Shown: piece after piece, positions 6,863 to 50,007 of the stretch
How the letters are laid out: every line of letters starts with the position of its first letter
Position numbering within the stretch: position 1 is the stretch's first letter
NCBI GenBank assembly: GCA_038253825.1
Contig: JBBSGT010000002.1
Span: forward strand, 685 to 64,684
DNA: 64,000 bases
Source: Candidatus Levyibacteriota bacterium
GTDB lineage: Bacteria > Patescibacteriota > Microgenomatia > Levybacterales > UBA12049
Reading direction: 5' to 3'
Translations under genes and position numbers: made by a program
Notes under the pieces: model-generated
What the model was told of the DNA's origin: nothing
Databases searched by the model: none
Seen by the model: only the letters and a program-made list of their open reading frames with translations

Positions 6863-6863
6863 A

Positions 6864-15863: not shown

Positions 15864-18080
15864 TTAAATACCTACCATATTTTTCGTTGCCAATTCTTTC
15901 TTTACTACTTGTTTCACTTGATCACTTGTTTCTTTAAGTTTAAGATGCAAACCGTGTTTTGTTTTTGACCAATGATGGGGTTTTACAATAAGTTGATATA
16001 AAGCAATCCATGATGCAATACTCATTGTTAGCCAGTAAAGTGGAACCAGAAAGACATACTGTATAAGATCGTAATGACCATGTTTTGCACAACCGATCAT
16101 GTAGTAATAAAGATATAAGAAATTACCCACTACCAATGAAAATACACCCATATAAAGAACAGGTGCTGGGAAAAAGGATTCAATAAAATCACCGACAAAA
16201 GGACGGAAAATAAAATAAGTCAACGTAATAAACCACATTAACGGATTGATAAAAAGTGAAAGTACTTTTCCACCTATTACCAGTTGGAATGTAATAAGAT
16301 GTACACGTTTATTACTTGGCAAAAAAGTTTTCAGATTTCTGGTATGAACGAGGTATGTTTGCATGTATCCCTTAATCCATCGTGAACGTTGTGCAAACCA
16401 GTTCATAAGGCTGCTATTTGCTTCTTCCAGTGTCTCTGAATCAACAATGGCTGTCGTATAACCTTCTTTAACCAACCGAATTCCAAGATCAGCATCTTCT
16501 GTCACATTAAAACTATCCCATCCTTTGAGTTTGTGTAAGTCTTTGGTTCTAAAATGGTTTGAAGTTCCACCAAGAGGAATTGGGGCTCCAATAGATTGCA
16601 ACCCCGTTAAAACAAGATCAAACCAAAGTGAATATTCAGCGGTAAAGACTCGAGTTAAGAAATTTTGTTGGGGATTATAGAAATTTAATTTGGCTTGGAC
16701 ACAAATCGTATTTCTTCGAGCTTTCGCAAAAGCTATGACTGATTTTTTTAGCTGCAATGGATCAGGTGCATCTTCAGCATCATAAATTACTGCATACTCT
16801 CCTGTCGCTTTGGTCAAACCATAATTACAAGCTTTTGGCTTGGTTTTTGGATAAGAGTGAGGAACAATAACAACTTCAAAATAAGAAGGCAAGTTAAATT
16901 TTGCGACTTGATCAATCGTCTCTTTATCATTTGCTTCCAACAGCAACATAACTTGTAATTTATCTTTGGGATAAATAAGTTTACTCATAGAGTTAACGAA
17001 TTGCGGGATCACCTGCCATTCCTTATAAAGTGGGCAAAAGACTGTGTAGCTAGGCCAAATGTGGTCAGGAATAGCTTGAATTTCTTCGATGGATACTTTA
17101 ATTTCTGCCGGTTTTACAAAGCTTCTGGTAATCAAATAAAGATTAAATAAGAGATCTATAAAATAAAGAAATGTTAAGACTGCGATAAATATAATAATAG
17201 TAGTGTGCCAGTTAATAATAAGTCCGGTCAGAAGTATAAGCAATGTGACAATTATATAGACTCCTTGTTGAAAGGTAATTCTCTGAAAAGCTGTCTCTGC
17301 TGGCTTTAATAATGAATAGTGAATGAATTCTTTTCCGTTATAGTGAAATCCATTTCCTTTTACTTTCCTTGTGTTGCGATGAAATGGGATAATTTCTTTT
17401 CCTTGAAATTTCATTTTTATGGCATTAATGCCGATTTCCCAACTCGATTTTAGTAAATGAATTTTTGTTTCACCTGAGGTGCGTTTTGCTAGTCGCATAT
17501 TTATGGTATCGATTTTGTAACCAGCATCTAAACTTTTTTTCAGAAATTCTAAATCAAATGTCCAAGGTGAAGGATAAATATGCAGTCGTTCTATAATTTC
17601 TTTCTTAAATATTTTTAAGCCTGACTGAATATCGAAGTTCAGTCCATGGAGAATTTTACCAAAAATATAAAGAAAGCTGCGGCTAAAAAAATTACGAATG
17701 AAAGTAGTATTACTGAGAATACGATTCGCTACAACGACATCAGCCCCTCGATTAATTTTATCAAGCATTTCAGGAATTGATTCAGGTTGATACTGCAAAT
17801 CACCGTCGATCATACAAAGAAGATCATATTGAGCATAACTAAATCCTTCAAGAAGCGACTGGGCCTTGCCTGGGATTCCTTGTTTAAGATATAGACGGAC
17901 AGGAAAACGCTGAGCAAAGTGTTTGACGACTGATTGTGTTTTGTCGCTTGAATGATCATCGACCACAATGATCTCGTAAGATATATTTTTGTGGTAAAGC
18001 GTATTATTAATACGCTCAATAAGATGTCCTATATTCCCTACTTCGTTCCAAGTAGGAATGATAATTGAAAGGCTTTGCAT
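15864..18080 (-). CDS. Bifunctional glycosyltransferase: N-terminal DPM1/ArnC-like GT2 fused through transmembrane helices to a processive synthase-like GT2.
   Basis: N-terminal IIIPTWNE...VVDDHSSD...DGDLQY, and a C-terminal D, D, QRSRW (QxxRW) set with YDAEDAPD. Confidence 0.8.
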   Translation of the reverse strand: MQSLSIIIPTWNEVGNIGHLIERINNTLYHKNISYEIIVVDDHSSDKTQSVVKHFAQRFPVRLYLKQGIPGKAQSLLEGFSYAQYDLLCMIDGDLQYQPESIPEMLDKINRGADVVVANRILSNTTFIRNFFSRSFLYIFGKILHGLNFDIQSGLKIFKKEIIERLHIYPSPWTFDLEFLKKSLDAGYKIDTINMRLAKRTSGETKIHLLKSSWEIGINAIKMKFQGKEIIPFHRNTRKVKGNGFHYNGKEFIHYSLLKPAETAFQRITFQQGVYIIVTLLILLTGLIINWHTTIIIFIAVLTFLYFIDLLFNLYLITRSFVKPAEIKVSIEEIQAIPDHIWPSYTVFCPLYKEWQVIPQFVNSMSKLIYPKDKLQVMLLLEANDKETIDQVAKFNLPSYFEVVIVPHSYPKTKPKACNYGLTKATGEYAVIYDAEDAPDPLQLKKSVIAFAKARRNTICVQAKLNFYNPQQNFLTRVFTAEYSLWFDLVLTGLQSIGAPIPLGGTSNHFRTKDLHKLKGWDSFNVTEDADLGIRLVKEGYTTAIVDSETLEEANSSLMNWFAQRSRWIKGYMQTYLVHTRNLKTFLPSNKRVHLITFQLVIGGKVLSLFINPLMWFITLTYFIFRPFVGDFIESFFPAPVLYMGVFSLVVGNFLYLYYYMIGCAKHGHYDLIQYVFLVPLYWLTMSIASWIALYQLIVKPHHWSKTKHGLHLKLKETSDQVKQVVKKELATKNMVGI

Positions 18081-18582: not shown

Positions 18583-21500
18583 ATGATAATTTATCAGCTC
18601 ATAGTATCATACATTGCAAAATATATGTCAAATAAAATAAAATTATTCAGTGTTATTATACCTGTCTATAACGAAATTGGTAATATAGCGCAGTTTCATC
18701 AACACTTACTAAAAACACTTACCTCGTATAAAAAACGTTTCGAAATCATCTATATCGATGATAATTCGACAGATGGCACGTATGAATGGTTACAAAGTAT
18801 TTCCCTCGCGCCTACTATTAAGGTAATTTTAAAAAATGGCATTAAAGGTAAAGCATATTCACTCATCCAAGGTTTTGATGTAGCTAAAGGAGATGCTTTT
18901 GTCATGATTGACGGTGATCTTCAGTACCCACCGGAAAAAATTCCAGAGATGATTGATGCGCTACAAATATCTGATATTGTGGTAGCGGAACGAAAGAAAT
19001 ATAAAGATAGCACATTACGCAAATTTCTTAGTAAAGGATTCAAGACAGTATTTGGGAAAATGATGTTTGGTCTGAATACTGATATTCAATCGGGTCTGAA
19101 AGCCTTTACAAAAGAAGTCTATCAAACAATTCAGTTTCAGCCTGTTTCTCCATGGACATTCGATCTTGAATTCCTCTACCGTTCACAACAAGCAGGATTT
19201 AGTATTAAAAATGTATCAATCATCTTTGCTCCACGTTTGAGTGGCGAATCAAAAGTGAATGCTCTTAATCAATCATGGGAAATTGGAACCAACGCACTTT
19301 CAATAAAAATGAAAAGAAAGCTTTATTTGCCAATTAAGGCAGTAAAGGGTTCGATGCGTGGTGCAGGTATTGGATATAAAAAGAAAAAATATATTACCCA
19401 TACGACTTTACCTGCTTCCCTGTCTGCTATCGAAACCTTCTCTCTGTCACAGAAAATATTTTTTCTTGGATTTCCAGTTTTGTTAATCCTTGCTCTTTTT
19501 ATGTTCCCATTGCCTGCGGCAAGAACGATCGTAGGGGTTTTGAGTATGCTCTACTTCATTGATGCCCTCTTTAACGTATTTGTGGTAACTCGCAGTTTGC
19601 AAAAAGATCATGACATTAAAGTAAGTGATGATGAACTTTCACTCCTCGATGAAAGCAAATTGCCACTCTATTCTATTCTTTGTCCTTTATATAAAGAAGC
19701 GCACGTTGTACCACAATTTTTGGAAGGTATCGCAAAGCTTGACTATCCAAAAGATAAATTAGATGTGATGTTTCTTCTTGAAGAGGATGATCTAGAAACT
19801 ATTGCAGCCTTTGGTCAGATGACACTTCCTTACTATGCCCGTACAGTTATTGTTCCTGATTCACAACCAAAAACGAAACCCAAAGCTTGTAACTACGGAT
19901 TGTCTTATGCAAAGGGTAAATATCTTGTTATTTTCGATGCAGAAGATTTGCCAGATCCCCTACAACTGAAAAAGGCAGTTATCGGATTCAAAAAAGTTCC
20001 GGCAGATATTAAATGTTTACAAGCAAAGTTGAGTTATTATAACTCACGTCAGAATTTGCTTACTCGCTTCTTTACTGCAGAGTATGCTTTATGGTTTGAT
20101 GTCACACTGCCAGGTTTGCAATCGCTTAACTCAGCATTGCCGTTGGGTGGTACGAGTAACCATTTCGAGACAGCAAACTTACGCGAACTTGAAGGATGGG
20201 ATCCATTTAACGTAACAGAAGATGCTGATTTGGGTGTCCGGTTGTTCAAACATGGGTACCGTACCGCAATTATCGATTCAACAACCTACGAAGAAGCTAC
20301 AAGTGTGACAAAAAACTGGTTACGACAACGCTCCCGATGGCTTAAAGGTTACATGCAAACGTATTTAGTGCAAATGCGCAACATTAACTCATTTGTAAAG
20401 AATAAAGGTGTCTGGCATACCATAATCTTCCAATTGACAGTTGGTGGCAAGATCCTTTTCGTTCTTTTGAATCCATTTATGTGGATTATCACTATTTTGT
20501 ATTTCAGTGCGTATTCTATTTTTGGTCCGGTGATGCAGGAGATCTATCAACCTCCACTTTCCTATTTCGCAGTCTTTTCGTGGATATTTGGCAACTTTAT
20601 GTTCTTATATTGTTACATGATTGCCGTAGGAAAACGTGGTCAATGGGATCTTGCAAAGTATGTTTTGTTAATTCCGTTTTACTGGGTCCTTATGAGTACA
20701 GCTGCTATGGTTGGTTTGTATCAGCTTATCCTGAAACCTCATTATTGGGAAAAGACAATTCATGGATTCCATTTGACCAAAAAGAATCTACCGGTACCAG
20801 CGGTCAAACCGGTTGGACAGCCAATTGCACAACCTGTGTATGTTGCTGCAGCAACACCAGTAAATAAAATTAAAGATACCCCTTTTGTGCTTACAATGCC
20901 TTCACAAATAAATGTTTCAACATTTATCTTACGATGGTTACCACTCTTTGCGATATTAAACACCGATTTGGTCTTGGCACGGTTTTTCTTACCATATGAA
21001 GATGCACAACTTTATATTGTTCTTTCGTTATTTGGCAAAGCTGTTTTCATACTCAGTCAATTCCTTTCCAACGTCTTAACAGCAGCAACTTCTAAAAAGA
21101 GAGTCAGTAAAGGATATTTATATCGATTACTTTTCTTTACGTTCTTATTCAACTGGATCGGATTTGTGGTATTTGGGTTGGAAGGTTCATATACTATTCC
21201 AGCATTGCTTGGAAATACCTATACAGGCATTATTCCATACATGGGCTATTATCTTTTTGGACTTACTTGTTTGGGCTTGACGAATCGTCTTACAACCTTT
21301 AATCTCTACAAGAAAAAATATTCATATACGATGTTATCGGTAGCGATCATCTTGTTACAAGTACCCTTCATTATTCTGCACCATGAAACAGTTTATAACT
21401 TCGTACGCATCTTTGCGTACTTTGGTTCTATTAATCTTTTCGTCCTCGTTGTCCTTCAGATGAGCGTTGTTAAAAACCTCATTATGGAGAACAACTTTAT

Positions 21501-22713
21501 CAGCATATTTAAATTATTTGATAAGCAAGCAAGCAAAAAAGCATGGAATCAAAACAACATGCGTATTCTAATCTTTAACTGGAGAGATACAAAACACATA
21601 TATGCCGGGGGCGCTGAAGTGTATATTCATGAGTTAGCACAACGTTGGGTAAAAAACGGCAATAAAGTAACACTCTTTTCAGGAAATGACAACAATAATT
21701 CTGATTATGAAATAGTGGATGGTGTTGAAATATTTAGACGAGGTGGCACATATACTATCTATATATTTGCATTCCTCTATTACCTGCTCAAATTCCGTGG
21801 CAAATATGATGTCATAATCGATTGTGAGAATGGAATTCCTTTCTTCACACCTTTGTACGCGAAAGAACAAGTTATCTTGCTCGTTCATCATGTCCACCAA
21901 GAAATATTCCGTAACTTCTTGCGCTTTCCATTGAGCATAATTGCTGAACTTTTGGAAGGTAAGATGATGCCACTTGTTTATCAAAACAAAAACGTTGTCA
22001 CAGTCTCAGCTTCTTCACAGAAGGATATCTTTAAGCTCGGATTTACCAATGCGGGTAATATTGAAATTATTCCAAATGGTGTTTCTTCCGGCTTATTTGT
22101 TGACTATCCTAAAACCGATAACCCATCATTTGTCTATTTAGGCAGACTGAAAGAGTATAAAAATATTGATGTCGCCATTAAAGCTTTCGCAAAAGTGTTG
22201 CGTATTCACAAGAAAGCTACACTGGCAATTGTTGGTTCTGGAGAAAGTTTCCCCGTTTTAGCAGATCTGGTTACTGATTTAAATATCCATCACGCAATTA
22301 AATTCTATGGTCGTGTAAGTGAAGCTGAAAAGGCAAAATTATTAGCAAAAAGTTGGGCTGCAATTCAGCCTTCCCAAATTGAAGGCTGGGGAATAACCGT
22401 TATCGAAGCAAATGCAGCAGGTACACCTGTGATTGCCTCCAATGTTAATGGGTTGCAAGACTCAGTTGTCGATGGGCAAACAGGATTACTTGTTCAAGCT
22501 GGAAATGTAACACAATTTGCAAATGCTATGATGAAGATAGCAGAAGATGATGATGTTCGAATTTCACTTTCACAAGAAGCTCAATTATGGGCAAAGAAGT
22601 TCGATTGGGATTCAAGTGCTACAGCTTTTTATGGTCTCATCGGTAAGAACTTGGGTCAAGGTGCAATCCAGCCTTCATATACAGAAGTTGCTTTTACTTC
22701 ATCAGAAAAATAA
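18583..22713 (+). CDS. 1376 aa multi-domain glycosyltransferase: DPM1-like GT2, processive GT2 (QxxRW), an ~8-helix polytopic membrane module, and a C-terminal GT4.
   Basis: IIPVYNE...DDNSTDGT...DGDLQY; YDAEDLPD...QRSRWLKGY; C-terminal GT4 motif EGWGITVIEANAAGTPVIAS (EX7E). Confidence 0.8.
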   Translation: MIIYQLIVSYIAKYMSNKIKLFSVIIPVYNEIGNIAQFHQHLLKTLTSYKKRFEIIYIDDNSTDGTYEWLQSISLAPTIKVILKNGIKGKAYSLIQGFDVAKGDAFVMIDGDLQYPPEKIPEMIDALQISDIVVAERKKYKDSTLRKFLSKGFKTVFGKMMFGLNTDIQSGLKAFTKEVYQTIQFQPVSPWTFDLEFLYRSQQAGFSIKNVSIIFAPRLSGESKVNALNQSWEIGTNALSIKMKRKLYLPIKAVKGSMRGAGIGYKKKKYITHTTLPASLSAIETFSLSQKIFFLGFPVLLILALFMFPLPAARTIVGVLSMLYFIDALFNVFVVTRSLQKDHDIKVSDDELSLLDESKLPLYSILCPLYKEAHVVPQFLEGIAKLDYPKDKLDVMFLLEEDDLETIAAFGQMTLPYYARTVIVPDSQPKTKPKACNYGLSYAKGKYLVIFDAEDLPDPLQLKKAVIGFKKVPADIKCLQAKLSYYNSRQNLLTRFFTAEYALWFDVTLPGLQSLNSALPLGGTSNHFETANLRELEGWDPFNVTEDADLGVRLFKHGYRTAIIDSTTYEEATSVTKNWLRQRSRWLKGYMQTYLVQMRNINSFVKNKGVWHTIIFQLTVGGKILFVLLNPFMWIITILYFSAYSIFGPVMQEIYQPPLSYFAVFSWIFGNFMFLYCYMIAVGKRGQWDLAKYVLLIPFYWVLMSTAAMVGLYQLILKPHYWEKTIHGFHLTKKNLPVPAVKPVGQPIAQPVYVAAATPVNKIKDTPFVLTMPSQINVSTFILRWLPLFAILNTDLVLARFFLPYEDAQLYIVLSLFGKAVFILSQFLSNVLTAATSKKRVSKGYLYRLLFFTFLFNWIGFVVFGLEGSYTIPALLGNTYTGIIPYMGYYLFGLTCLGLTNRLTTFNLYKKKYSYTMLSVAIILLQVPFIILHHETVYNFVRIFAYFGSINLFVLVVLQMSVVKNLIMENNFISIFKLFDKQASKKAWNQNNMRILIFNWRDTKHIYAGGAEVYIHELAQRWVKNGNKVTLFSGNDNNNSDYEIVDGVEIFRRGGTYTIYIFAFLYYLLKFRGKYDVIIDCENGIPFFTPLYAKEQVILLVHHVHQEIFRNFLRFPLSIIAELLEGKMMPLVYQNKNVVTVSASSQKDIFKLGFTNAGNIEIIPNGVSSGLFVDYPKTDNPSFVYLGRLKEYKNIDVAIKAFAKVLRIHKKATLAIVGSGESFPVLADLVTDLNIHHAIKFYGRVSEAEKAKLLAKSWAAIQPSQIEGWGITVIEANAAGTPVIASNVNGLQDSVVDGQTGLLVQAGNVTQFANAMMKIAEDDDVRISLSQEAQLWAKKFDWDSSATAFYGLIGKNLGQGAIQPSYTEVAFTSSEK

Positions 22714-22725
22714 TTATAAAGATTT

Positions 22726-23616
22726 ATGAAACATCTACCTAGTATCTCAATTGGTATCCCGGCTTATAACGAAGCAAGAAATATTAAAAAACTTCTTAAG
22801 TCGCTCCTCGCGCAAAAGGAAGTTGGTTTCCGTTTAGAATCTATTATTGTCGTTTCTGATGGAAGTTTTGATACAACAGGAATCCAAGTAAAGTCTCTCA
22901 AAGACAAACGTATTAAACTCTGGGATGACCATAAGCGACTTGGAAAATCAGCTCGGCTTAATCAACTTTTTCGCAAAAATTCAGCTGATGTATTAATACT
23001 CGCAGACGCGGATATCAAAATTGCCGATCCTAACCTTTTAAGTACCATAATAAATGATAGCGATTTTAAACATGAAGGTATTGTCGCCGTAAATGCCACA
23101 CCAACAAGGGGAAAAACATTTATCGAAAATTCACTCAATGCCGGGGCTTTTGCTGTTAAACAAATGTCGGAAGACTGGAGAAACGGTAATAACTATTTAT
23201 CCTTCAAAGGTTGTTTTCTGGCTTTGGATAAAAATTTAGTGAAGAAAATTTCTATACCTGCAACTCTTGTTAATAATGACGCATTTCTTTACTTTTCAGC
23301 GCTTGCGTATAATTACACACCTGCCTACAGAAAAAATTGCGTCGTTTATTATCGTTCACCTGCAACACTGGATGATCATATTAAACAATCATCAAGATTT
23401 AAAAGCTCAAGTGAAGAATTAAAACAATATTTCAAACTGGATTTAGAAAAAGAATATAAAACACCCATTGCAATTATGCTTAGTAGCATACTACAATCAT
23501 TAATAAAGAGACCGGTCTTTTTCCTTGCTTATCTCGGCATTAATAGTATTTCTCAAATCAAAAAGCAAACCAATATTAAGAGTACATGGAGTATTGCTTC
23601 TTCAACAAAACAGTAA
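22726..23616 (+). CDS. Family 2 glycosyltransferase, DPM1-like.
   Basis: N-terminal ISIGIPAYNEARNI motif, with DGS/DAD aspartates. Confidence 0.7.
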   Translation: MKHLPSISIGIPAYNEARNIKKLLKSLLAQKEVGFRLESIIVVSDGSFDTTGIQVKSLKDKRIKLWDDHKRLGKSARLNQLFRKNSADVLILADADIKIADPNLLSTIINDSDFKHEGIVAVNATPTRGKTFIENSLNAGAFAVKQMSEDWRNGNNYLSFKGCFLALDKNLVKKISIPATLVNNDAFLYFSALAYNYTPAYRKNCVVYYRSPATLDDHIKQSSRFKSSSEELKQYFKLDLEKEYKTPIAIMLSSILQSLIKRPVFFLAYLGINSISQIKKQTNIKSTWSIASSTKQ

Positions 23617-23641: not shown

Positions 23642-24733
23642 ATGAAAACCGACAAATATCAAAAATTACCATTATTTCATTTTTCTTCAGAGTTGAAGAG
23701 ACGTCATATAAAGAAAAACCTTAAGTGCGTTATCTTTGGCAATTTCGGCGCAATGAATTTAGGGGATGAAGCGATCCTCGCAGGTGAAATACAAGAGTTG
23801 CAAAAACTGCCAAATATAGCAATTACCGTTGTAGCTCGTTACCCTGAAGAAATTAAACGCTTACATCAGGTTCAAAGCATTTCACTTTATAATCTGCGTG
23901 AAATTAGACGGGCTGTAAAGAAATCTGATTTTGTCATAGTTGGTGGCGGTGGTCTTATTAATAAAGTAGAGAGAAGTTTTATTGGATTTGGATATCAGCT
24001 GTATATGTTATTTACGTTCTTTTTTCTCCCGCGTTTTTATAAACGGAAATTATATATCTTTGGTGTCGGAATTTACAGCAACGCAAATTCTCTGATCTTA
24101 CATCTTGCTTATCCATTAATTAAATACGCAAGCATAGTTACTGTTCGTGACCATCATTCTTATGCCTTTTTAAAAAGTAAAAACATTCACGCAATGCTTT
24201 ATAAAGATAATAGTTTTCTTATGGATTTAGCACCAATGGATGTTGTTATGAAAGAGGAAATATTCAAAAAAGAATATAGAAAAGATCGAGATAATATCGG
24301 TATTTCACTTGTAAAACCAGATAGTCCGGCTGAAGAAAAGCGATTGATAAATGAAATCTCAGCCTTTATACTCGATAATCATAAATATTCGGATTTTTGG
24401 TTCTATCCAGCTGATTATAATCCCGAATACGAGGGTGATCATAAACTTATGGAACGTGTTCTTATCAAGGCAAAAAAACAAACAAAAGATCCAATCATAC
24501 TTCATACAGTACCTATGAAAGCAACTCCCCAAGTTTTTTTCGGATCAATTAAATTAATGAATCGTTTTATTGCGATGCGTTTTCATGCAGCTGTTTTTGC
24601 TTATCGCAATAAAGTTCGCTTTACAGGTATATCTTATGATAAAAAAGTAGCGAGTTTTCTGGAAGCAGTCGGAAAAACTTCTTTAAGCCTCAAAACCTTC
24701 AAGGCAAAAGATATCGAAAATAGTATCTTATAG
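23642..24733 (+). CDS. Polysaccharide pyruvyl transferase family protein (CsaB/WcaK-like).
   Basis: FGNFGAMNLGDEAIL N-terminal signature followed by a GGGG loop. Confidence 0.65.
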   Translation: MKTDKYQKLPLFHFSSELKRRHIKKNLKCVIFGNFGAMNLGDEAILAGEIQELQKLPNIAITVVARYPEEIKRLHQVQSISLYNLREIRRAVKKSDFVIVGGGGLINKVERSFIGFGYQLYMLFTFFFLPRFYKRKLYIFGVGIYSNANSLILHLAYPLIKYASIVTVRDHHSYAFLKSKNIHAMLYKDNSFLMDLAPMDVVMKEEIFKKEYRKDRDNIGISLVKPDSPAEEKRLINEISAFILDNHKYSDFWFYPADYNPEYEGDHKLMERVLIKAKKQTKDPIILHTVPMKATPQVFFGSIKLMNRFIAMRFHAAVFAYRNKVRFTGISYDKKVASFLEAVGKTSLSLKTFKAKDIENSIL

Positions 24734-24754: not shown

Positions 24755-25609
24755 GTGTATAATGCCAGAACCTATAATCTAGGTAAGACTTTGAGTATGT
24801 ATTTATTATTTAAAATAGTAACAAGTATCAGAAAAATGGTATATCAAATACTCGGTTCACTAGACCAATTTGTTTTCCATATGAAAAATCCTGTTGTTAT
24901 CCTCTCGTATCATAGTGTTTCAAATGATGATTGGCGTTTTAGTGTAAGCGAAAAATCACTCAAAAAACAAATCGCTTATCTCAAAAAACATTTTGAGATT
25001 ATTACCCTCAAAAAACTTAGTGACCACCTTTCTGGAAAAAAGAAATTAACCCGTCCCGCCGTTGTACTTACTTTTGATGATGGGTATAAAGATATTTTGA
25101 AAATGGAAGCATATTTTAAGAAAAATAAAATTAAACCTGCATTATTTGTCCTCGCAAATAGTAAAAATCCAAATAGACAAGAATTGGGAAATAAAAAATC
25201 TTTCTTAAGTAAAAAAGAAATTCAATATTTGCACAATTCGGGTTGGGAAATTGGTTGTCACAGCGCAACACACGCAAACCTCGCAAGACTTTCTCAAAAA
25301 GAGCTTGATAAAGAAATTATGCAAGCCAAGCACAAAATGGAAAAGCAATTAGGATTTTCTATCCCCTATTTTGCTTATCCTCGTGGTAAATATAATGCAA
25401 ACGTAGTACGCTTAGTAAAAGTTGCGAACTTTTTAATGGGCTTTACTATGGATGATGGTATTATCAAACCAAATCGTGATGTATATACAATCCCACGGGT
25501 AGGAATTGATAGCACGCATACTTTTAGTGAATTCATTAATACTTTTTCTCCTTCAGTTGTCCGTTTTCGAGGTTTAATAAAGCGAAGTTCTGTGGGGAGG
25601 TATTTATGA
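24755..25609 (+). CDS. Polysaccharide deacetylase (NodB family).
   Basis: VVLTFDDGYKD (TFDDG motif) and HSATH. The true start may be the internal Met near 24881. Confidence 0.7.
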   Translation: MYNARTYNLGKTLSMYLLFKIVTSIRKMVYQILGSLDQFVFHMKNPVVILSYHSVSNDDWRFSVSEKSLKKQIAYLKKHFEIITLKKLSDHLSGKKKLTRPAVVLTFDDGYKDILKMEAYFKKNKIKPALFVLANSKNPNRQELGNKKSFLSKKEIQYLHNSGWEIGCHSATHANLARLSQKELDKEIMQAKHKMEKQLGFSIPYFAYPRGKYNANVVRLVKVANFLMGFTMDDGIIKPNRDVYTIPRVGIDSTHTFSEFINTFSPSVVRFRGLIKRSSVGRYL

Positions 25610-27192
25610 ACAAGTGGTTAGCAAATAAAAAAATTAAAATCTTAGGATATGTTCTGTTCACGTTTTTCTGCGCTTTAGTTTTGACATTATCAGTTCGTGG
25701 ACTTCCGGGCAATCCTGACACGAGTCAACTTAACAGATTAACCTGGAAAGATAACGGACCCCTAGAATTATCACCAGAACGTGGCCGTTACGCGTTGACA
25801 TACGCTATTGCAGAGACACATAAATTCAGTTTTTCACCTGATTTAGCGCGTTTTGCTGCGCCGGACGTGGGCTTTCTCAATGGACAATATGTCTCTCTGT
25901 TCGCGCCTACTGTATCATTTATTATTCTTCCCGGGTATTTGCTAGGAAAAGCAGTTGGGTTTGCACAAGTGGGAAGTTTTGCTGTGATTGCTTTATTTGC
26001 TTTGTTTAATGTCTATCTTATTCGTTCGATTTCCATAAAATTGGGCGCACACCCATTAGCTGGATTGATTGCTGGATTAGTATTCCTTTTTGCGACGCCT
26101 GCTTTTGCCTATGCCGTCACACTGTACCAACACCACATCTCAACATTTATCATTTTATCTGGTATTTATCTGTTAATTAGCTTTGACTCAGTGTGGGCGC
26201 TTATTGGTATTTGGATGCTTTGTGCTTTATCAATTTCGGTTGATTACCCGAATTTCTTTATGATGTTACCTATCGGCATCGGTGCGTTAGGTCGAACCAT
26301 CATAGCTAAAAAGCAACAGTATGGTTACGTTGTTAAAATCCCTGTTATGCGGGTTCTTGCGTTACTTACCATGATTATTCCATTGGCTTTCTTCTTATGG
26401 TTTAACAATGCTTCTTACGGAAGTCCTTTCCAATTATCAGGTACTGTAGATCGTTCGGTCCAAATTAATCCAAATGGTTCTCCTGTTTTGGAAAGTGAAC
26501 AGGTTAAAGCCCGGTTAAAATCAGCCGGCCAGCCTGCAGTAATTCCGCAAAAAAGTGCGTTAGGAGCATTTAATAGTCGGCTTATTATGCAAGGATTTTA
26601 TATTTATTTCTTCAGTCCAGATCGTGGAATAATTGTTTATACGCCTGTTATGCTTTTTGGATTTGCCGGTTTATTCCTAGCGCTCAAACAGAAACTGAAA
26701 TATACATGGTTATTGGTAGCAGTCATTGGATTTAATATTTTATTATACTCTATGTGGGATGATCCATATGGGGGTTGGGCATTTGGTTCACGTTATTTAA
26801 TCCCCTCATATGGAGTCCTGTCAATTTTCTTAGCGTATATATTGACCAGACTTTCAAAATATAATCTCTTTTTACTTTTCTTCTTCGCGATATATGTGTA
26901 TTCAGTAAGTGTCAATACACTTGGAGCACTTACCTCAAACAGAAATCCGCCCCAAGTCGAAGCTGTTGCTCTCTCTAAAGTAACGGGGCATGATGAACCA
27001 TATACCTACATCCGAAATCTGAATATTCTAAACTCAAATGAATCTAAATCAATCGTGTTTGATACGTATGCCACAAATTATATGAGTGCATGGAATTATT
27101 ATAGTTATGTAATGGTTCTTATTATTGTTGTCTCAGCGTTTTTACTGATGACATTGAAGTCGGTAACGAAAGGAGTTAAACATGCACTTTAA
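25606..27192 (+). CDS. Polytopic membrane protein; putative GT-C-type (ArnT/PMT-like) glycosyltransferase.
   Basis: 528 aa with at least 11 transmembrane helices and a large first extracytoplasmic loop with conserved acidic/aromatic residues; its start overlaps the upstream stop. Confidence 0.5.
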   Translation: MNKWLANKKIKILGYVLFTFFCALVLTLSVRGLPGNPDTSQLNRLTWKDNGPLELSPERGRYALTYAIAETHKFSFSPDLARFAAPDVGFLNGQYVSLFAPTVSFIILPGYLLGKAVGFAQVGSFAVIALFALFNVYLIRSISIKLGAHPLAGLIAGLVFLFATPAFAYAVTLYQHHISTFIILSGIYLLISFDSVWALIGIWMLCALSISVDYPNFFMMLPIGIGALGRTIIAKKQQYGYVVKIPVMRVLALLTMIIPLAFFLWFNNASYGSPFQLSGTVDRSVQINPNGSPVLESEQVKARLKSAGQPAVIPQKSALGAFNSRLIMQGFYIYFFSPDRGIIVYTPVMLFGFAGLFLALKQKLKYTWLLVAVIGFNILLYSMWDDPYGGWAFGSRYLIPSYGVLSIFLAYILTRLSKYNLFLLFFFAIYVYSVSVNTLGALTSNRNPPQVEAVALSKVTGHDEPYTYIRNLNILNSNESKSIVFDTYATNYMSAWNYYSYVMVLIIVVSAFLLMTLKSVTKGVKHAL

Positions 27193-28810
27193 TATCAGAA
27201 CATTTTCATTACAATTTTCAATCAACAATAAACCCGTAGAGGCAGCAAAAAAGTTATTTGAAAATCATGCAACAGTCATCCTCTTTTTCATGTTGAGTAT
27301 GATTTCTATTGCGAGCTTCTTATACTTTCTTTCAAATCATTTAGGTGTTGCATACAATGATGCCAGGTCACATTTGGATATTGCCCGTCGTGTTGTCGAA
27401 AATCTTAAACCCGGATTTGCTCAGCTAGGGAGTGTTTGGTTACCGCTTCCTCATTTACTTGCTACGTTGACAGTTTGGAATGACACGATGTGGCATACAG
27501 GACTGGCTGGCGCATTACAATCAATGATTTCGTATGTTGCCACAGGTATTCTTATTTACCGCATTTTGCAAGCACTGGGCGTTACTCTTTATGGTCGATT
27601 AGTAGGTGTTATTGTCTTTGCTTTGAATTTGAATATTATTTACATGCAATCTACAGCGATGACGGAGTTACTGCTTCTCGGTACGATGACTGCCGGCGTC
27701 TATGAATTAATCCAGTGGCACAAAGAAGAAAAAATGACACGACTTCTTATGTCAGGATTGTGGATTATGCTTTCAACGATGATTCGTTATGATGGTTGGT
27801 TTCTCCTTTTCTTTGCCACCATATTGATTATCATTCAGACCATGCGAAAACATAATTATAAAACTACAGAGGGTGTCGTGGTAATCTTCGGAACCTTGGC
27901 TGGATTTGGTATATTCCTCTGGTTTTTCTGGAATTTGATAATTTTTAAAGATCCACTTTACTTTATCTTAGGACCTTATGCAGCGGGAACACAACAACAA
28001 CAGTTGGCTGATGCTGGTGTTCTTGCAACCAAGCATAACCTGCCATTCTCACTCCAAACTTATATCTACGCTATCTTTTATAACAGTGGCGTCTTCACAA
28101 CGATTTTGGCATTTATAGGGGTTATTTTATTCTGGTTTGATAAAAAAATTAGTAAAGAGTTACGATATGCTGCAACTGCACTTTTAGCGCCATTTATATT
28201 CAATGTCCTTTCGCTTTACTTAGGACAATCAGTACTCTTTGTTCAAGGGTTACATGGAAATTCTTGGTTTAACGTCCGTTATGGTTTAATGATGATACCT
28301 TCAATTGCTGTATTTGTCGGTTATCTGACACAGCGAGTAAAACCAGTACGCTATGTCATTTTAGCGTTATTACTTTTTGTGACTTTTTTCAGTTATGTTA
28401 ATCGTGATGCCGTGACTATTGATGATGCTGTATTTGGTGCAAGTGGTAAAAATGTATCACAAGTTAGTAGCTGGCTGAATCAACATGTACCTAACAAGCC
28501 GGGATTTGTCTTAATATCAGTTGCTTCCCATGATGCTATTATTTTCTCTTCAGGTTTACCGATGAGCCGATTTATTCATGAAGGAACTGGTTTGTATTGG
28601 AATGCGGCTATAGCTCACCCTGTGCATTGGGCTCGCTGGATTATTTTGCGCACTGGTGATGCAAACGATCAAACATATAGATTATTGCATAATAATCGAG
28701 AATTCAAGAATGATTATACATTAACAGACCATTATCCTTTTGCTGACATTTATGAAATTAAGCCGCAATACGTGAAAGATCTTCACATCAAACCTTCCCT
28801 GGAACTCTAA
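27182..28810 (+). CDS. Family A membrane protein, paralog 2.
   Basis: Carries the family motif YNDARSHLDIARRVVENLKPGFAQLGSVWLPLPHLL. Confidence 0.65.
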   Translation: MHFNIRTFSLQFSINNKPVEAAKKLFENHATVILFFMLSMISIASFLYFLSNHLGVAYNDARSHLDIARRVVENLKPGFAQLGSVWLPLPHLLATLTVWNDTMWHTGLAGALQSMISYVATGILIYRILQALGVTLYGRLVGVIVFALNLNIIYMQSTAMTELLLLGTMTAGVYELIQWHKEEKMTRLLMSGLWIMLSTMIRYDGWFLLFFATILIIIQTMRKHNYKTTEGVVVIFGTLAGFGIFLWFFWNLIIFKDPLYFILGPYAAGTQQQQLADAGVLATKHNLPFSLQTYIYAIFYNSGVFTTILAFIGVILFWFDKKISKELRYAATALLAPFIFNVLSLYLGQSVLFVQGLHGNSWFNVRYGLMMIPSIAVFVGYLTQRVKPVRYVILALLLFVTFFSYVNRDAVTIDDAVFGASGKNVSQVSSWLNQHVPNKPGFVLISVASHDAIIFSSGLPMSRFIHEGTGLYWNAAIAHPVHWARWIILRTGDANDQTYRLLHNNREFKNDYTLTDHYPFADIYEIKPQYVKDLHIKPSLEL

Positions 28811-28833
28811 TTATTTTCGGGTATAATAAATAT

Positions 28834-29832
28834 ATGACCTTTACCCGGGGAGAAAAAATTTATATTTTCGTTACCTTTCTCGTTGGCATGAGTATTTTTT
28901 CCTTACTTATTTTGCCTAGCCAAAATAACAAACTCCATATGAAACAGACACAATGGCAAATACAATCAATTGATACTATGAAATATTCTCGTGATATGGC
29001 GAAATATAATGCGAGCAATGTGAAATATACTACTGAGGTCAAAAAACAAGTTGCAGATATTGCGAATACAGGCGCAAATTATATTGCGATTGATACGCCT
29101 TATGATGACGAATTTCTTCCGGTATTGAATTTATGGGTATACACAGCAAGAGAACATGGGTTACATATATGGTTCAGGGGAAACTGGTCAGGTTGGGAAG
29201 GTTGGTTTGGGTATAATCGCATTGATGAGCAAACACATCTAGCAAAAACAAAGCAATTTATTAAAGAAAATAAAGATCTTTTTCAAGATGGAGATATATT
29301 TAGCTCCTGTCCGGAATGTGAAAATGGTGATGCGAAGCTCAATTTAGCTAATCAGCAGTCAGTTGCTGCCTATCGACAATTTCTTATTGAAGAATATCAG
29401 GCAACCAAAGATGCATTTGTAGATATCCATAAAAATGTCGCCAGTAACTATTTTTCAATGAATACAGACGTTGCCCGAGAGATCATGGATAGAGAAACAA
29501 CTATTCAGCTTGATGGACTTGTTGTCATTGACCACTATGTTTTAACGCCTGAGCAATTGGCAAATGATGTTTCATTAATTGCTCTGCAAAGTGGCGGAAA
29601 TATTATGTTGGGAGAAATGGGTGCACCAATTCCCAGTATTCATGGCGCAATGACTGATGAACAACAAAGGCAATGGCTTGAGCAATCTTTACACGAGCTC
29701 TCTCAAATAGGTAAATTAAACGGCATAAACTACTGGGTTAATAAAGGTGGTTCGACCGCATTATGGAGACCAGATGGTTCTCCCAAGCCCGCCGTAGCCG
29801 TCATAAAATCCTATTTCACCAAAAACCAATAA
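28834..29832 (+). CDS. Secreted family B protein; putative clan GH-A-like glycoside hydrolase.
   Basis: Signal-anchor helix, the motifs WQIQSIDTMK, GANYIAIDTPYD and WFRGNWSGWEGWF, and candidate catalytic glutamates in CPECENG and GEMGAPIP. Confidence 0.55.
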   Translation: MTFTRGEKIYIFVTFLVGMSIFSLLILPSQNNKLHMKQTQWQIQSIDTMKYSRDMAKYNASNVKYTTEVKKQVADIANTGANYIAIDTPYDDEFLPVLNLWVYTAREHGLHIWFRGNWSGWEGWFGYNRIDEQTHLAKTKQFIKENKDLFQDGDIFSSCPECENGDAKLNLANQQSVAAYRQFLIEEYQATKDAFVDIHKNVASNYFSMNTDVAREIMDRETTIQLDGLVVIDHYVLTPEQLANDVSLIALQSGGNIMLGEMGAPIPSIHGAMTDEQQRQWLEQSLHELSQIGKLNGINYWVNKGGSTALWRPDGSPKPAVAVIKSYFTKNQ

Positions 29833-29936: not shown

Positions 29937-29965
29937 ATTGACAATTATATATTACTCTGTTACAA
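29937..29965 (+). promoter_or_regulatory. Near-consensus sigma70-type promoter (TTGACA-17-TACAAT).
   Basis: TTGACA at 29937-29942, a 17-nt spacer and TACAAT at 29960-29965, about 60 nt upstream of the sortase-substrate gene. Confidence 0.5.
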
Positions 29966-30026
29966 TCCTCTTTACTAAACATATAGGTTTATTAAATTAT
30001 ATATAATCTATCTGTTAGAGAATACT

Positions 30027-30683
30027 ATGTATAAAAAAATATTATTAATGACACCAATCGCTGCGACACTCTTTATGAGTGCAGCTCTTCCTGTGTACGC
30101 AAATCCTATTCCACAATTCGGATCATGTGTTAATCCACAATGGGCACAAACTCAAGTTAATTATGGAGATAGTCATGGTGTCGTTGGTGTCAATAAATTT
30201 CCTGGTGTAGACAGTATTTATTCTTCAAATGGAAATACGATGCAATGCCTCTGTACGAATACAGGTGAAGGTTACCAAACAAATTGGTTAAAAGCCTCAA
30301 ACTATTCTCATGATCAAATTGAATCCTTGCAAGCACAAGGTTGGATCTATATATCGGAAGCAGAAGCTAAGGATAGCTGGGGTTTGGAATCAGGTCCTTA
30401 TCTTGCGAAAAATGAGACCTATGCATGCACAGCTTGTACACCAACTCCTACCGTAACACCCACAGGTACGCTTACTCCTACACCAACAGTGACAACACCC
30501 GGACCAACAGCAACACCAGGACCCGGCGCTACTGCAACGCCTGAAACAAAAGTACAAGGTGCCTCTGCAAACAACAATAATGTCTTGGCTTCCACAGGAA
30601 ATGCTTTAGTTATCTACGTTTCACTCCTTGCCGGAGCAGTATCCTTGATCTTGGGATTGTTCCTGAAAAAGTTTGGTAAATAA
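30027..30683 (+). CDS. Secreted Cys-containing surface protein with a Thr/Pro linker and a C-terminal LASTG (LAXTG-type) cell-wall sorting signal.
   Basis: Signal peptide (AATLFMSAALPVYA), six Cys residues, a TPTPTVTPTG linker, then LASTG followed by a hydrophobic helix and a KKFGK tail. Confidence 0.7.
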   Translation: MYKKILLMTPIAATLFMSAALPVYANPIPQFGSCVNPQWAQTQVNYGDSHGVVGVNKFPGVDSIYSSNGNTMQCLCTNTGEGYQTNWLKASNYSHDQIESLQAQGWIYISEAEAKDSWGLESGPYLAKNETYACTACTPTPTVTPTGTLTPTPTVTTPGPTATPGPGATATPETKVQGASANNNNVLASTGNALVIYVSLLAGAVSLILGLFLKKFGK

Positions 30684-31224
30684 AAGTATGAAACTGCTTG
30701 CCCGTCTCTTCATCATCGCTGGAATTTTTTTGTATGCTTTTGCTGTCTATCAAATTGCTTTGCGGGAAAATCCAAAACGTTTAGCGTTTGACAATTATAT
30801 CTACGGTCAAAACCACAGTGTTAATGATAAAAATCTTCCTACAGAAATTACTATAAAAGACCTCGATATTGATATTCCAGTGTATCCATCAATGGTAACA
30901 AACAATCAGTGGCAGACAACTAATGCCGGCGCATCTTATCTGACTTCTTCTCCTTTACCTGGGGCAAAAGGAAACAGTATTGTTTATGCTCATAATTGGC
31001 GAAGCCTTTTTGGTAATTTAGTTAACGCACACATTGGAGAACAAGTTAGCGTAACCTATCCAAATAAAACGAAGAAAATATTTGTTATTGCTTATACATC
31101 CGTTGTGTCACCTGACCAATCGACAATACTTGCTCCTTCAAATGACAAACGCATAACTCTTTATACCTGCACAGGTATTCTTGATTCGAAACGATTTGTC
31201 GCTGTCGCAATCCTCAAAAGTTGA
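30673..31224 (+). CDS. Sortase; the LAXTG preference of its neighbour suggests class E-like.
   Basis: Catalytic His context (VYAHNW), TLxTC active-site motif (ITLYTCTG), an N-terminal transmembrane anchor, and an 11-nt overlap with the substrate gene. Confidence 0.75.
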   Translation: MVNKSMKLLARLFIIAGIFLYAFAVYQIALRENPKRLAFDNYIYGQNHSVNDKNLPTEITIKDLDIDIPVYPSMVTNNQWQTTNAGASYLTSSPLPGAKGNSIVYAHNWRSLFGNLVNAHIGEQVSVTYPNKTKKIFVIAYTSVVSPDQSTILAPSNDKRITLYTCTGILDSKRFVAVAILKS

Positions 31225-31286: not shown

Positions 31287-31889
31287 TTAGTAAAGCGTAT
31301 TTGATGAACCATTAACATGGACAGTTACGTTAGATGTAACGTTTCCTGTACCAACTCCTGTTGTACCACCCGTGTTAAAACTTGAAGAATTACCTCCAGT
31401 CTTTGAGTGTGATGTGACACTTGTCCAGATGTAACTCAAATTTTGTTGAGCAACACTGACCCAGTTGTGATTAGATACGTTTACCTTGTTTGTAGATAAC
31501 GCACCATTGTGTGAAACAGTAACGTGAGTAGTGTTATCAGCTGGTGTCGGGACTATTGCAGTATTTGATGAACCACCAACAGTAACATTGACAGTACTGT
31601 TAGCATCTCCTGTGCCTATAATGGTACTTCCGCCGGTATTAAAATCAGCATTATTACCGCCAGTGTTTGCATGTGAGCTGACATCGGTTAAAACGGTGGA
31701 GTCATTATTTTGGGCAACAGTTGTATTGGTAGTATTACGTACCTGGACTGATGTGTCAGATAAAGCTCCATTATGAGAAACAGTTACATTCGTATTTGCA
31801 AAAGCTGCCGGAGAGACTGCCCCGAGAACAATTGCAGCAGTAGCAACTGCTGTTGTTAATTTAGCATTAAAATTGATCATTCTTTTCAC
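31287..31889 (-). CDS. Secreted N/T/G-rich repeat protein, a short paralog of 10278 and 11594.
   Basis: Signal peptide, the repeats VSHNGALS ... NTGGxxxDFNTGG ... TGDANSTVNVTV, and the same GGAGGTGAAAAGA RBS context as 10278. Confidence 0.65.
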   Translation of the reverse strand: MKRMINFNAKLTTAVATAAIVLGAVSPAAFANTNVTVSHNGALSDTSVQVRNTTNTTVAQNNDSTVLTDVSSHANTGGNNADFNTGGSTIIGTGDANSTVNVTVGGSSNTAIVPTPADNTTHVTVSHNGALSTNKVNVSNHNWVSVAQQNLSYIWTSVTSHSKTGGNSSSFNTGGTTGVGTGNVTSNVTVHVNGSSNTLY

Positions 31890-34169: not shown

Positions 34170-34823
34170 GTGCTATACTGGAGTTATATGACAGCCGCGC
34201 TTATTTCTTTTATTGATAAACTGCAAGACTTTTTAGCCAATTTTTTAGTAAGCCAAATTTATCTTGCACCGATTTTCATTTTAGTACTTGAAGAAATGGG
34301 TATTCCGCTTCCCTTTGCAGATGTCGTGATCGCATATACGGGTTATCAAGTTGCAATAGGACGTATTCCCTATTTTGTTGCTTATCTTGTCTTACTTGTT
34401 TCAGATATTTTGGGAGCAACTATTCTCTATCTTATTGCAAGACATTATGGAAGAAAAGTAATTGATAAATTTGGGAAATATATTGATCTTGATCAGAAAA
34501 AATTTACCGCTGTGGAAGAAAAGTTTCGTAAATATGGTCCAGTTGTGATTATTATCGGAAGACATATTATTGGTTTTAAAATCCCTATCACCCTCTTTTC
34601 CGGTATCTCGAAAATGCGTTATCGTACTTTTGCAATAAGTGTCCTGATCTCAGATAGTTTTTGGATTCCTTTCTATCTTTCACTTGGTGAAAAACTTGGA
34701 CCCAAGACACTTCATTTACTCCATGATCATCACTGGTATGTATTACTCTTCCTCTTTCCTATTATTGTCGCGATTATGCCGTTCTTCCTTATGCGCAAGA
34801 ATAAGCATTTTAATTTATTTTAG
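34170..34823 (+). CDS. DedA/SNARE-associated family membrane protein.
   Basis: DedA signature EEMGIPLPFADVV ... ARHYGRKVIDKFG. Confidence 0.7.
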   Translation: MLYWSYMTAALISFIDKLQDFLANFLVSQIYLAPIFILVLEEMGIPLPFADVVIAYTGYQVAIGRIPYFVAYLVLLVSDILGATILYLIARHYGRKVIDKFGKYIDLDQKKFTAVEEKFRKYGPVVIIIGRHIIGFKIPITLFSGISKMRYRTFAISVLISDSFWIPFYLSLGEKLGPKTLHLLHDHHWYVLLFLFPIIVAIMPFFLMRKNKHFNLF

Positions 34824-43248: not shown

Positions 43249-43260
43249 GGTATACACGAG

Positions 43261-49980: not shown

Positions 49981-50007
49981 TGAGGAAAAATGTAATAACA
50001 AATTATT

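Follow-up and report, generated by a model that had tools for sequence, protein, structure and literature searches.

The window analyzed here, a 64,000-nt stretch of DNA from a Candidatus Levyibacteriota metagenome-assembled genome (MAG) of the Microgenomates within the candidate phyla radiation (CPR), encodes four copies of a polytopic membrane protein (family A) and three copies of a predicted extracytoplasmic protein (family B), with family A genes placed repeatedly upstream of family B genes. Structure models assign family A to the GT-C fold glycosyltransferases (GTs) and family B to the (beta/alpha)8 barrels of glycoside hydrolase (GH) clan GH-A. The repeated combination of a GT-C transferase with a TIM-barrel sugar-cleaving enzyme suggests that a sugar polymer of the cell surface is built and trimmed by one unit. 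In the reading that we favor, to which we give a probability of about 0.55, A and B form a conserved unit on the outer face of the membrane that assembles and processes one Microgenomates-type CPR surface glycopolymer, with family B acting as a glycosidase of the CcsZ/BcsZ kind. The two folds, the conservation of residues, the synteny, the co-variation of subtypes, and the gene fusions are established directly. The genes of the two families in the window are the following.

27182 to 28810, forward strand: family A copy A1, 542 amino acids (aa)
14258 to 15859, reverse strand: family A copy A2, 533 aa, without a family B partner, separated by 4 nt from the GT2 synthase gene upstream of it
48397 to 49980, forward strand: family A copy A3, 527 aa, upstream of A4, the most divergent copy (YADTMSRLDIARK)
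50008 to 51513, forward strand: family A copy A4, 501 aa, immediately 5' of B2, with which it overlaps
28834 to 29832, forward strand: family B copy B1, 332 aa, N-terminal transmembrane helix (residues 5 to 26) followed by a GH-A (beta/alpha)8 barrel
51464 to 52774, forward strand: family B copy B2, 436 aa, transmembrane anchor, GH-A barrel, and C-terminal CarboxypepD_reg beta-sandwich
52935 to 54215, forward strand: family B copy B3, 426 aa, signal-peptide-like N terminus (VHA↓Q), GH-A barrel (PEAEN), and weak CarboxypepD_reg-like C terminus

By blastp, the four family A copies show 30 to 38% pairwise identity (E values of 7e-64 to 3e-105), and the three family B copies show 39 to 47% (4e-81 to 2e-110), similarities that are far beyond chance in both families. 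The original prediction, made from the sequence of the window, had described a recurrent arrangement of A upstream of B, and the open reading frames (ORFs) are found as it had placed them; the fourth family A copy, to which it had assigned no position, is A2. A lies directly 5' of B at two sites (27182 to 28834 and 50008 to 51464), and A3 precedes A4, giving the order A3, A4, B2, and B3. A1 and B1 are separated by 23 nt, and the A4 and B2 genes share 50 nt.

Structural models and conserved residues

The AlphaFold2 model of A1 (pLDDT of 84, pTM of 0.81) was compared with the PDB using Foldseek and yielded 25 matches at an E value of ≤1e-3, which were exclusively GT-C enzymes and included STT3, PglB, ALG12, DPY19, ArnT, Pmt4, AglB, EmbB, and AftA. 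The probability was 1.0 for GT-C matches such as STT3, PglB, and ALG12, and the identity of A1 to its structural matches was 8 to 15%. By its modeled fold, family A is therefore a GT-C glycosyltransferase, in agreement with the transferase-type membrane protein that had been predicted. Y58, D60, S63, P77-G78, Q81, G83, and W86-L87-P88 are invariant in all four copies. An invariant Asp/His-containing loop had been proposed for this region; the aspartate held up, with Asp60 (in Y-N-D-A, directly after the first transmembrane helix, in the first outer loop) being invariant in 43 homologues as well as in the four window copies, and the histidine did not, being Arg in the copy at 48397 and at least 90% conserved across the family. 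The acidic loop residue of GT-C enzymes is represented in family A by this single Asp, with no DxD motif, and Asp60 is the positional counterpart of the catalytic first-loop acidic residue in GT-C enzymes. On the basis of the model helices and the positive-inside rule applied to the sequence, A1 is predicted to have its N terminus inside, about 11 transmembrane helices, and a C-terminal alpha/beta domain outside, and the strongly conserved loops YMQSTAMTE, RYDGW, DPLYF...Q, and FNVRYG would all face outward.

Database annotation assigns a Pfam domain to none of the more than 2191 family A homologues, and no window copy had an above-threshold match in Pfam or NCBIfam. PMT_2 (PF13231, cutoff of 26.1 bits) scored 19.7 bits with A3 and 23.1 bits with A4 and gave no match with A1 or A2; it was matched at an E value of ≤0.01 by 8 of the 43 family A relatives, and no other glycosyltransferase Pfam family was matched. 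Because the PMT_2 scores are subthreshold, the window copies are regarded as divergent relatives and not as callable PMT_2 members. A search of the family A profile against all PDB sequences gave nothing significant, with no solved GT-C sequence matched. Family A thus shares with ArnT (5f15, TM-score of 0.60), PMT_2 (GT83-like), and other GT-C_A enzymes the fold, the size of about 500 to 550 aa, the Asp after the first transmembrane helix, and the external C-terminal domain, whereas it differs from them in its low identity, its subthreshold PMT_2 scores, and the lack of a profile match to solved GT-C sequences.

Family B folds, in its model, as a clan GH-A (beta/alpha)8 TIM barrel, which is the fold that the original prediction had put forward for checking. 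All three copies contain the motifs IDTMKxSRD, AIDTPYD, WFRGN(W/F)SxWEGWF, PE(C/A)EN, and GE(M/F)GAPIP, and the glutamates in the last two had been nominated as the candidate acid/base and nucleophile. Their placement in the model is consistent with this: in the DSSP assignment of B1, E161 and E163 (PECEN) come after strand 4 (residues ~155 to 157), and E261 (GEMG) ends strand 7 (residues 256 to 262), so that the candidate nucleophile (E261) and the candidate acid/base (E161 or E163) occupy canonical GH-A positions. Among 327 full-length B domains, E161 is conserved in 326, E163 in 324 (with Asp in 3 more), and E261 in 325, and the barrel-mouth residues D47, K50, R53, D54, Y90, R115, E122, D233, H234, and Y235 are conserved in ~94 to 100%. 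A nonsignificant alignment to a GH2 glucuronidase pairs GEFGA with TEFGA. The GH-A motif N-E-P is replaced in family B by P-E-(C/A/P)-E-N, in which Asn164 follows the second Glu.

Glu161 is located within a C-P-E-C sequence, with Cys159 present in 263 and Cys162 in 254 of the 327 domains (C159/C162 of B1 at about 29308 to 29319 in the window); domains without the cysteines tend to have Ala or Pro at the two positions, as in the PEAEN of B3. The conservation pattern suggests a local disulfide or redox-sensitive element beside the active site. DsbA- and DsbB-like proteins are also encoded in the window (6194 to 7295, reverse strand).

Family B had been described as secreted. The extracytoplasmic location holds, but B1 and B2 are probably membrane anchored and not freely secreted; the signal site of B3 (VHA↓Q) looks cleavable. 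The short, conserved tail after CarboxypepD_reg in the B2/B3 type (about 52650 to 52774 and 54100 to 54215) has the consensus ...P..P...Y..RL..K... and could be an anchoring or sorting element.

B1 has no match in Pfam or NCBIfam, and no family B copy in the window has one above threshold. The sole glycosidase Pfam model touched by family B members is PF11790 (Glyco_hydro_cc, cutoff of 21 bits), which we take to be the CAZy GH128 beta-1,3-glucanase family; it scored 20.2 bits with B2 and 17.9 bits with B3 and touched 4 of 44 sampled members, aligning the strand 6 to 8 region that includes the nucleophile. Since only the C-terminal third is aligned and B1 and 40 of the 44 members are unmatched, this resemblance is at the clan level and does not indicate membership. 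The family B profile searched against all PDB sequences gave nothing significant, and the substrate specificity cannot be inferred from the structural neighbors because mannosidases, glucuronidases, glucanases, and galactanases score nearly equally. The family falls into more than 2100 clusters at 90% identity and into 590 at 50%, and its members are named in databases as "hypothetical protein," "carboxypeptidase regulatory-like domain-containing protein," and, once, "glycosyl hydrolase."

Several more distant proteins combine B-like domains with other modules. P0465, from a high-GC organism, has two tandem B-like domains; P0482 has a B-like domain and C-terminal repeats with weak, subthreshold matches to CBM30 and a surface glycan-binding protein domain; P0384 carries a family B domain with two PA14 domains; and the more distant P0494 joins a GT2 domain, a transmembrane helix, and a B-like domain. 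These B-like domains indicate that the family reaches beyond the Microgenomates.

Pairing of the two families and gene fusions

In a pattern scan, 352 of 185,579 species genomes encoded a family B relative, with labels that are mostly Levy-, Gottesman-, Woese-, Ames-, or Roizmanbacteria or other Patescibacteria. Many genome records with family B loci (L003, L005, L006, L013, L029, L030, L044, L053, and others) are labeled Gammaproteobacteria, Bdellovibrionales, Pseudomonadales, Weeksellaceae, Verrucomicrobiia, etc.; these labels look unreliable because the synteny is the same as in the window and the identity to the window family B protein is 50 to 60%. For the analysis of gene order, 160 loci were assembled, 80 from genomes in order of their similarity to B1 and 80 from metagenomes in order of their similarity to B2, and the gene families were placed on them by tblastn.

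The original prediction had named co-occurrence beyond this genome as one of the points on which it would stand or fall, and the loci bear it out. Upstream sequence of at least 1.8 kb was available for 121 family B genes, of which 97 have a family A gene immediately upstream on the same strand, and 14 have one within 3.2 kb upstream with genes inserted. Two further genes are the second copy of a B-B tandem, one lies next to another GT-C-type gene, and seven have no A detected upstream, a number that fell to five after a recheck with hidden Markov models (HMMs). In addition, the pairing is specific with respect to subtype: B1-type genes follow A1-type genes in 63 cases, B2 follows A4 in 17 cases (out of 19 B2-type genes with the required upstream sequence), and B3 follows an A2-type gene in 9 cases. 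This co-variation of subtypes indicates that the pair has duplicated and diverged as a unit. The order of A3-type, A4-type, and B2 genes is kept in metagenome loci such as L084, L085, L086, L092, L096, L098, L099, and L101. In L072 (7140 to 9855), a 438-aa oxidoreductase-like ORF and a 464-aa ORF lie between A and B; the latter resembles DUF4038/GH140-type glycosidases by eye and may be a second recruited glycosidase.

The two families are also found joined in single polypeptides. Among 146 cluster representatives from an exhaustive HMM search, blastp identified at least seven A::B fusions (P0377, P0391, P0393, P0394, P0396, P0413, and P0429), which stem from the A1/A4-like, A2-like, and A3-like branches, and P0382 is a fusion of B to GTCother, the membrane protein whose gene precedes A1 in the window. 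The fusion representatives are 890 to 954 aa long, with the B domain at residues ~530 to 850 in the HMM search. P0377 passes the Pfam thresholds in both parts, with 31.3 bits for PMT_2 in the A part and 26.2 bits for Glyco_hydro_cc in the B part. Single uninterrupted A::B ORFs are present in the DNA of L107, L123, and L139, and the 983-aa fusion in L123 has the same context as the first locus of the window: GTCother, A::B, surface protein, and sortase. The fusions lack the transmembrane helix of B, which implies that the C-terminal domain of A and the B barrel share one side of the membrane and fits the outer location predicted from the topology of A1. The pair itself stands in different wider contexts, namely, GTCother-A1-B1-surface protein-sortase, GT2 synthase-GT2-GT4-GT2-A3-A4-B2, and GT2 synthase-A-B. 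On the grounds of the subtype co-variation, the differing contexts, and the fusions, we argue that the pairing is more than the shared ancestry of a single arrangement.

The wider gene unit

The original prediction had suggested a two-gene module. The coupling of A and B stands, and the pair as the full unit does not: the conserved unit is larger and comprises a processive GT2 synthase, GTCother, A, and B, often followed by a sortase substrate and a sortase. The remaining genes of the two window loci and the synthase gene next to A2 are the following.

15864 to 18080, reverse strand: fusion of a GT2 and a processive GT2 synthase, 738 aa (Pfam Glycos_transf_2, Glyco_tranf_2_3, and Glyco_trans_2_3)
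18583 to 22713, forward strand: triple fusion of a GT2, a processive GT2 synthase, and a GT4, 1376 aa, first gene of locus 1 (Pfam)
22726 to 23616, forward strand: soluble GT2 of locus 1 (Pfam and NCBIfam; below the equivalog cutoff)
23642 to 24733, forward strand: CsaB-like polysaccharide pyruvyl transferase of locus 1 (Pfam and NCBIfam; below the equivalog cutoff)
24755 to 25609, forward strand: CE4 polysaccharide deacetylase of locus 1, PgaB/IcaB-like (Pfam and NCBIfam; below the equivalog cutoff)
25606 to 27192, forward strand: GTCother, 528 aa, second polytopic membrane protein, at least nine hydrophobic segments
30027 to 30683, forward strand: small secreted surface protein with a Cys-containing N-domain, Thr/Pro-rich stalk, LASTGN sorting-like motif, transmembrane segment, and basic tail
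30673 to 31224, forward strand: sortase (Pfam match)
44252 to 45841, forward strand: processive GT2 synthase of locus 2 (Pfam and NCBIfam)
45847 to 46767, forward strand: soluble GT2 of locus 2 (Pfam and NCBIfam)
46764 to 47882, forward strand: GT4 of locus 2 (Pfam and NCBIfam)

The GTCother gene overlaps the start of A1 by 11 nt, and the order GTCother-A-B is found in 59 of 65 genome loci. GTCother has a weak, below-cutoff match to the NCBIfam LA_3751/LA_3752 putative glycosyltransferase (E value of 2.8e-6). In an hhalign profile-profile comparison, it matched family A with a probability of 80% (E value of 1.4e-5); as a single sequence, it gave a nonsignificant probability of 1.5%, and its profile found nothing significant among all PDB sequences. 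GTCother is regarded as a distant relative of family A and is probably a second GT-C-type transferase.

The three GT2 synthases of the window are paralogous, and those at 15864 and 44252 are 65% identical. Their best solved relative is BcsA (E value of 2e-14 for the head of locus 2), and their NCBIfam matches are CelA and PgaC. The N-terminal GT2 domain of the large fusions resembles the stand-alone GT2 at 42517 to 43329 (reverse strand). The gene order at the head of locus 2 recurs in L084, L085, and L101, and a GT2 synthase gene adjoining A recurs in L003, L065, L073, L094, L097, L107, L118, and L120, with direct synthase-A-B triads in L097, L107, and L120. A GT2 synthase lies within 10 kb upstream of 32 (42%) of the 76 family B genes for which this full distance was available. 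Family B therefore resembles synthase-associated glycosidases in being encoded in a GT2 synthase locus and having an N-terminal transmembrane or signal segment. Considered as candidate polyprenyl-phosphate sugar synthases, the small GT2s are without transmembrane helices, and their match to the Pyrococcus dolichol-phosphate mannose synthase is generic and restricted to the N-terminal region (E value of 5.8e-6). No Pfam match to GtrA or Wzx was found among the scanned window ORFs, all of at least 120 aa. An Arn/Lgm-type pathway, in which a GT2, a CE4 enzyme, and a GT-C enzyme add an amino sugar, was considered for the locus and not adopted, since the CE4 protein best matches polymer deacetylases of the PgaB/IcaB type and not ArnD and any resemblance of the small GT2s to ArnC stays within the noise.

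Downstream of B, a sortase gene is found within 3 kb in 40 of 67 genome loci. The N-domain of the small surface protein occurs in 69 loci, in 60 of them directly before the sortase, and across the loci this protein has a Thr/Pro- or Ser-rich stalk and an LxxTG-like motif (LASTGN/LATTGN). Many loci of the B1 type have the surface protein and the sortase after B. The surface protein and sortase are also present at L123 (11268 to 12472) and L161 (11111 to 12285); L161 is a compact operon of a GT2-GT2 synthase-GT4 fusion (1136 aa), GTCother, A, B, surface protein, and sortase. The surface protein could be a glycoprotein substrate of the unit or simply a neighbor. The best sigma-70-like site in locus 1 (29938 to 29966, 11 of 12 matches with a TG) lies between B and the surface protein gene, in a scan that as a whole was at chance level; the terminator scan was likewise at chance level, and operon boundaries are defined by neither.

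Proposed mechanism, alternatives, and relation to known systems

In the reading that we favor, the GT2 synthases would most likely make and export the polymer backbone, and GTCother and A would extend or decorate it outside the cell. By analogy with characterized GT-C enzymes, family A would use the Asp60 loop to move a sugar or glycan, delivered on a polyprenyl-phosphate carrier, onto an acceptor located outside the membrane. Family B, as a putative retaining GH-A enzyme with Glu261 as the nucleophile and Glu161 or Glu163 as the acid/base, would be held beside A, and in some lineages fused to its external C-terminal domain, and would cleave or religate the polymer, which could control chain length, release the polymer from the machinery, or remodel it. 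The type of donor, the substrate shared by A and B, the catalytic competence of B, and the choice between hydrolysis and transglycosylation are inferred. The enzymes of clan GH-A work with retention on equatorial linkages (beta-D or alpha-L), and inverting GT2 synthases make equatorial linkages from UDP-alpha-sugars; because the linkage preference of the clan is the linkage made by the synthases, the synthase product is favored as the substrate of B. Four points weigh against this reading. The scanned window ORFs yielded no positive identification of a flippase or of a polyprenyl-phosphate sugar synthase. Family A does not depend on B, since it is also found alone, as in the copy at 14258. B is tied more tightly to GT-C genes than to the GT2 synthase, so its substrate may instead be the product of the GT-C enzyme. 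Finally, the replacement of the strand 4 Asn-Glu by P-E-C-E-N leaves the acid/base assignment ambiguous.

The closest architectural analogue of B is CcsZ, a 340-aa GH5 enzyme with an N-terminal transmembrane anchor and catalytic residues Glu164 and Glu281, which is encoded beside a GT2 cellulose synthase (CcsA) in Clostridia (PMC7710045). CcsZ (GH5_25) and B are alike in size, anchor, barrel, and presence in a synthase locus. Dedicated glycosidases of synthase-dependent exopolysaccharides also include BcsZ (GH8), PslG (GH39), the C-terminal domain of PgaB (GH153), and PelA (GH166). B differs from the GH5, GH8, and GH39 types in having no significant sequence match to them and no NEP motif, and it differs from the CcsZ/BcsZ type in that its direct, sometimes fused partner is a GT-C transferase and not the GT2 synthase; to our knowledge, no synthase-dependent system has a GT-C enzyme as the partner of its hydrolase.

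The three-component transmembrane glycosylation systems of Gram-positive cell wall polymers consist of a GT2 synthase of an undecaprenyl-phosphate (C55-P)-linked sugar, a GtrA or Wzx flippase, and a GT-C enzyme, as in CsbB-GtcA-YfhO and GacI-GacK-GacL, and we know of none described with a glycosidase partner. The GT-C enzymes of these systems have an acidic outer-loop motif, act outside the membrane, and are encoded beside GT2 genes in envelope glycan loci (PMC8035078). The window loci share with them GT-C enzymes with an acidic outer-loop residue beside GT2 genes but differ in having two GT-C-type genes in tandem and no GtrA, Wzx, or membrane-linked C55-P-sugar synthase identified in the scanned ORFs.

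The combination of a GT and a GH-fold domain in one polypeptide that couples synthesis to processing, as in A::B, has a parallel in the cyclic beta-1,2-glucan synthase Cgs (GT84, transglycosylase, and GH94), which differs in its folds, in its chemistry, and in the side of the membrane, the Cgs domains being cytoplasmic. Full-text literature searches returned no description of the A-B pair or of a GT-C::GH fusion, and no GT-C::GH-A architecture is known to us. The superfamily of each component and the presence of a dedicated glycosidase inside a glycan biosynthesis locus are thus already known. What is new, as far as the literature shows, is a GH-A lineage with no family match in the comparisons with Pfam, NCBIfam, and PDB sequences and with a P-E-C-E-N motif at strand 4, its near-obligate pairing with GT-C transferases instead of a synthase, and the GT-C::GH-A fusion proteins.

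Other explanations of the pair were considered. B may be mainly a transglycosylase that grafts a GT-C/GT2-built chain, via a glycosyl-enzyme intermediate, onto a wall polymer or a growing chain, as do fungal GH72 Gas/Gel, GH16 Crh, and GH76 Dfg5/Dcw1 and, through its transglycosylase domain, cyclic beta-1,2-glucan synthase. Transfer is permitted by a retaining GH-A fold in which the two glutamates are conserved, physical fusion to a transferase is expected if the nascent chain passes between active sites, no LCP-type ligase was found among the scanned ORFs (part of the window ORFs), and PECEN in place of NEP could reflect altered handling of water and acceptor. We nevertheless consider this reading unlikely: no sequence or structural feature that was examined separates transglycosylases from hydrolases, an LCP ligase may be encoded elsewhere in the genome, and the characterized bacterial synthase-associated glycosidases (BcsZ, CcsZ, PslG, PelA, and PgaB) are all hydrolytic. 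A more far-reaching form, given a somewhat smaller chance, is that A, B, and GTCother make up an unrecognized "synthesize-and-graft" machine in which the GT-C enzyme would hand the nascent chain to the tethered GH-A domain, which would transglycosylate it onto the wall or surface layer, by analogy with the pairing of transglycosylase and transpeptidase in peptidoglycan synthesis; such a machine would define a GH family of its own as well as the principal pathway for envelope glycopolymers in the Microgenomates. Slimmer again is the chance of protein O-glycosylation, in which GTCother and/or A would act in the manner of PMT/PglL on the Ser/Thr/Pro-rich stalk of the sortase-anchored protein and B would trim the glycan. 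The sole Pfam match of some A members is PMT_2 (8 of 43 relatives, with P0377 above threshold), oligosaccharyltransferases and Pmt4 are among the top Foldseek matches, and a protein with a T/P- or S-rich linker and a sortase follow B in many loci, including L123. However, the A3-A4-B2 and GT2 synthase-A-B modules have no adjacent sortase or surface protein, the promoter-like site after B hints at separate transcription of the surface protein gene (within a scan at chance level), the GT2 synthases, pyruvyl transferase, and CE4 deacetylase point to a polysaccharide and not to a short protein glycan, and no known bacterial protein glycosylation system needs a dedicated GH-A partner.

It is improbable that B is a catabolic or predatory glycosidase acting on environmental or host polysaccharides for nutrition or attachment, with its adjacency to A being inherited synteny. 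In its favor, dependence on other organisms is assumed for CPR bacteria, most extracellular GH-A enzymes serve catabolism, PA14 or carbohydrate-binding module (CBM)-like domains are present in some relatives (P0384 and P0482), and further GH-like genes lie between A and B in some loci (L072). Inherited synteny is hard to reconcile with repeated independent fusions to two different GT-C-type families, with an adjacency kept across three anciently diverged paralogue pairs, and with the start/stop overlap of A4 and B2, and no sugar transporters or catabolic genes were found in the loci examined. Least probable is a noncatalytic role, in which B would bind the acceptor and so present the wall polymer to a small GT-C enzyme. 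Rismondo et al. speculated that small GT-C transferases might need a second, acceptor-binding protein (PMC8035078), and the fusion point at the C-terminal domain of A is where the CBM of Emb and AftD enzymes is located. The conservation of the catalytic glutamates and the barrel-mouth residues across the B domains is the pattern of an active enzyme; a lectin-like derivative would not typically show it.

The envelope of CPR bacteria (Patescibacteria) is almost uncharacterized, since few have been cultured and many of their surface proteins are without annotation. The present analysis gives folds and a likely chemistry to two large families without Pfam assignment, each of more than 2000 clusters at 90% identity and mostly named hypothetical, whose coupling is seen in synteny, codiversification, and gene fusion, and it suggests that GT-C-based extracytoplasmic assembly also follows the rule that a glycan synthase locus comes with its own glycosidase. 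The soluble B domain (~300 residues) is an expressible target for substrate discovery and possibly a new glycoside hydrolase family, and the A-B unit is an entry point to the structure of Microgenomates surface glycans.

The wider context of the window consists of chromosomal housekeeping genes (BipA, DsbAB, D-Ala-D-Ala carboxypeptidase, and P-type ATPase), and a phage or plasmid origin was set aside on this ground. A membrane protein with a DedA/VTT domain is encoded at 34170 to 34823, ~4 kb downstream of locus 1; the DedA family has been implicated in undecaprenyl phosphate recycling, which would bear on the turnover of the GT-C donor. Three paralogous secreted proteins (10278 to 11519, 11594 to 13888, and 31287 to 31889 on the reverse strand) have Asn/Thr/Ser/Gly-rich repeats (VSHNGALS...TGGN...), no Pfam match, and mutual identities of up to 45%, and they may be surface-layer or fiber proteins. 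The GC content is ~0.31 at 46000 to 50000, which covers the GT4 and A3 part of locus 2, compared with ~0.36 elsewhere. The 121-aa ORF at 48035 to 48400 has no Pfam match and resembles by eye the C-terminal half of a class I methyltransferase, so that it may be what is left of a truncated gene; a related cluster (L162, 14355 to 14999) encodes a complete methyltransferase.

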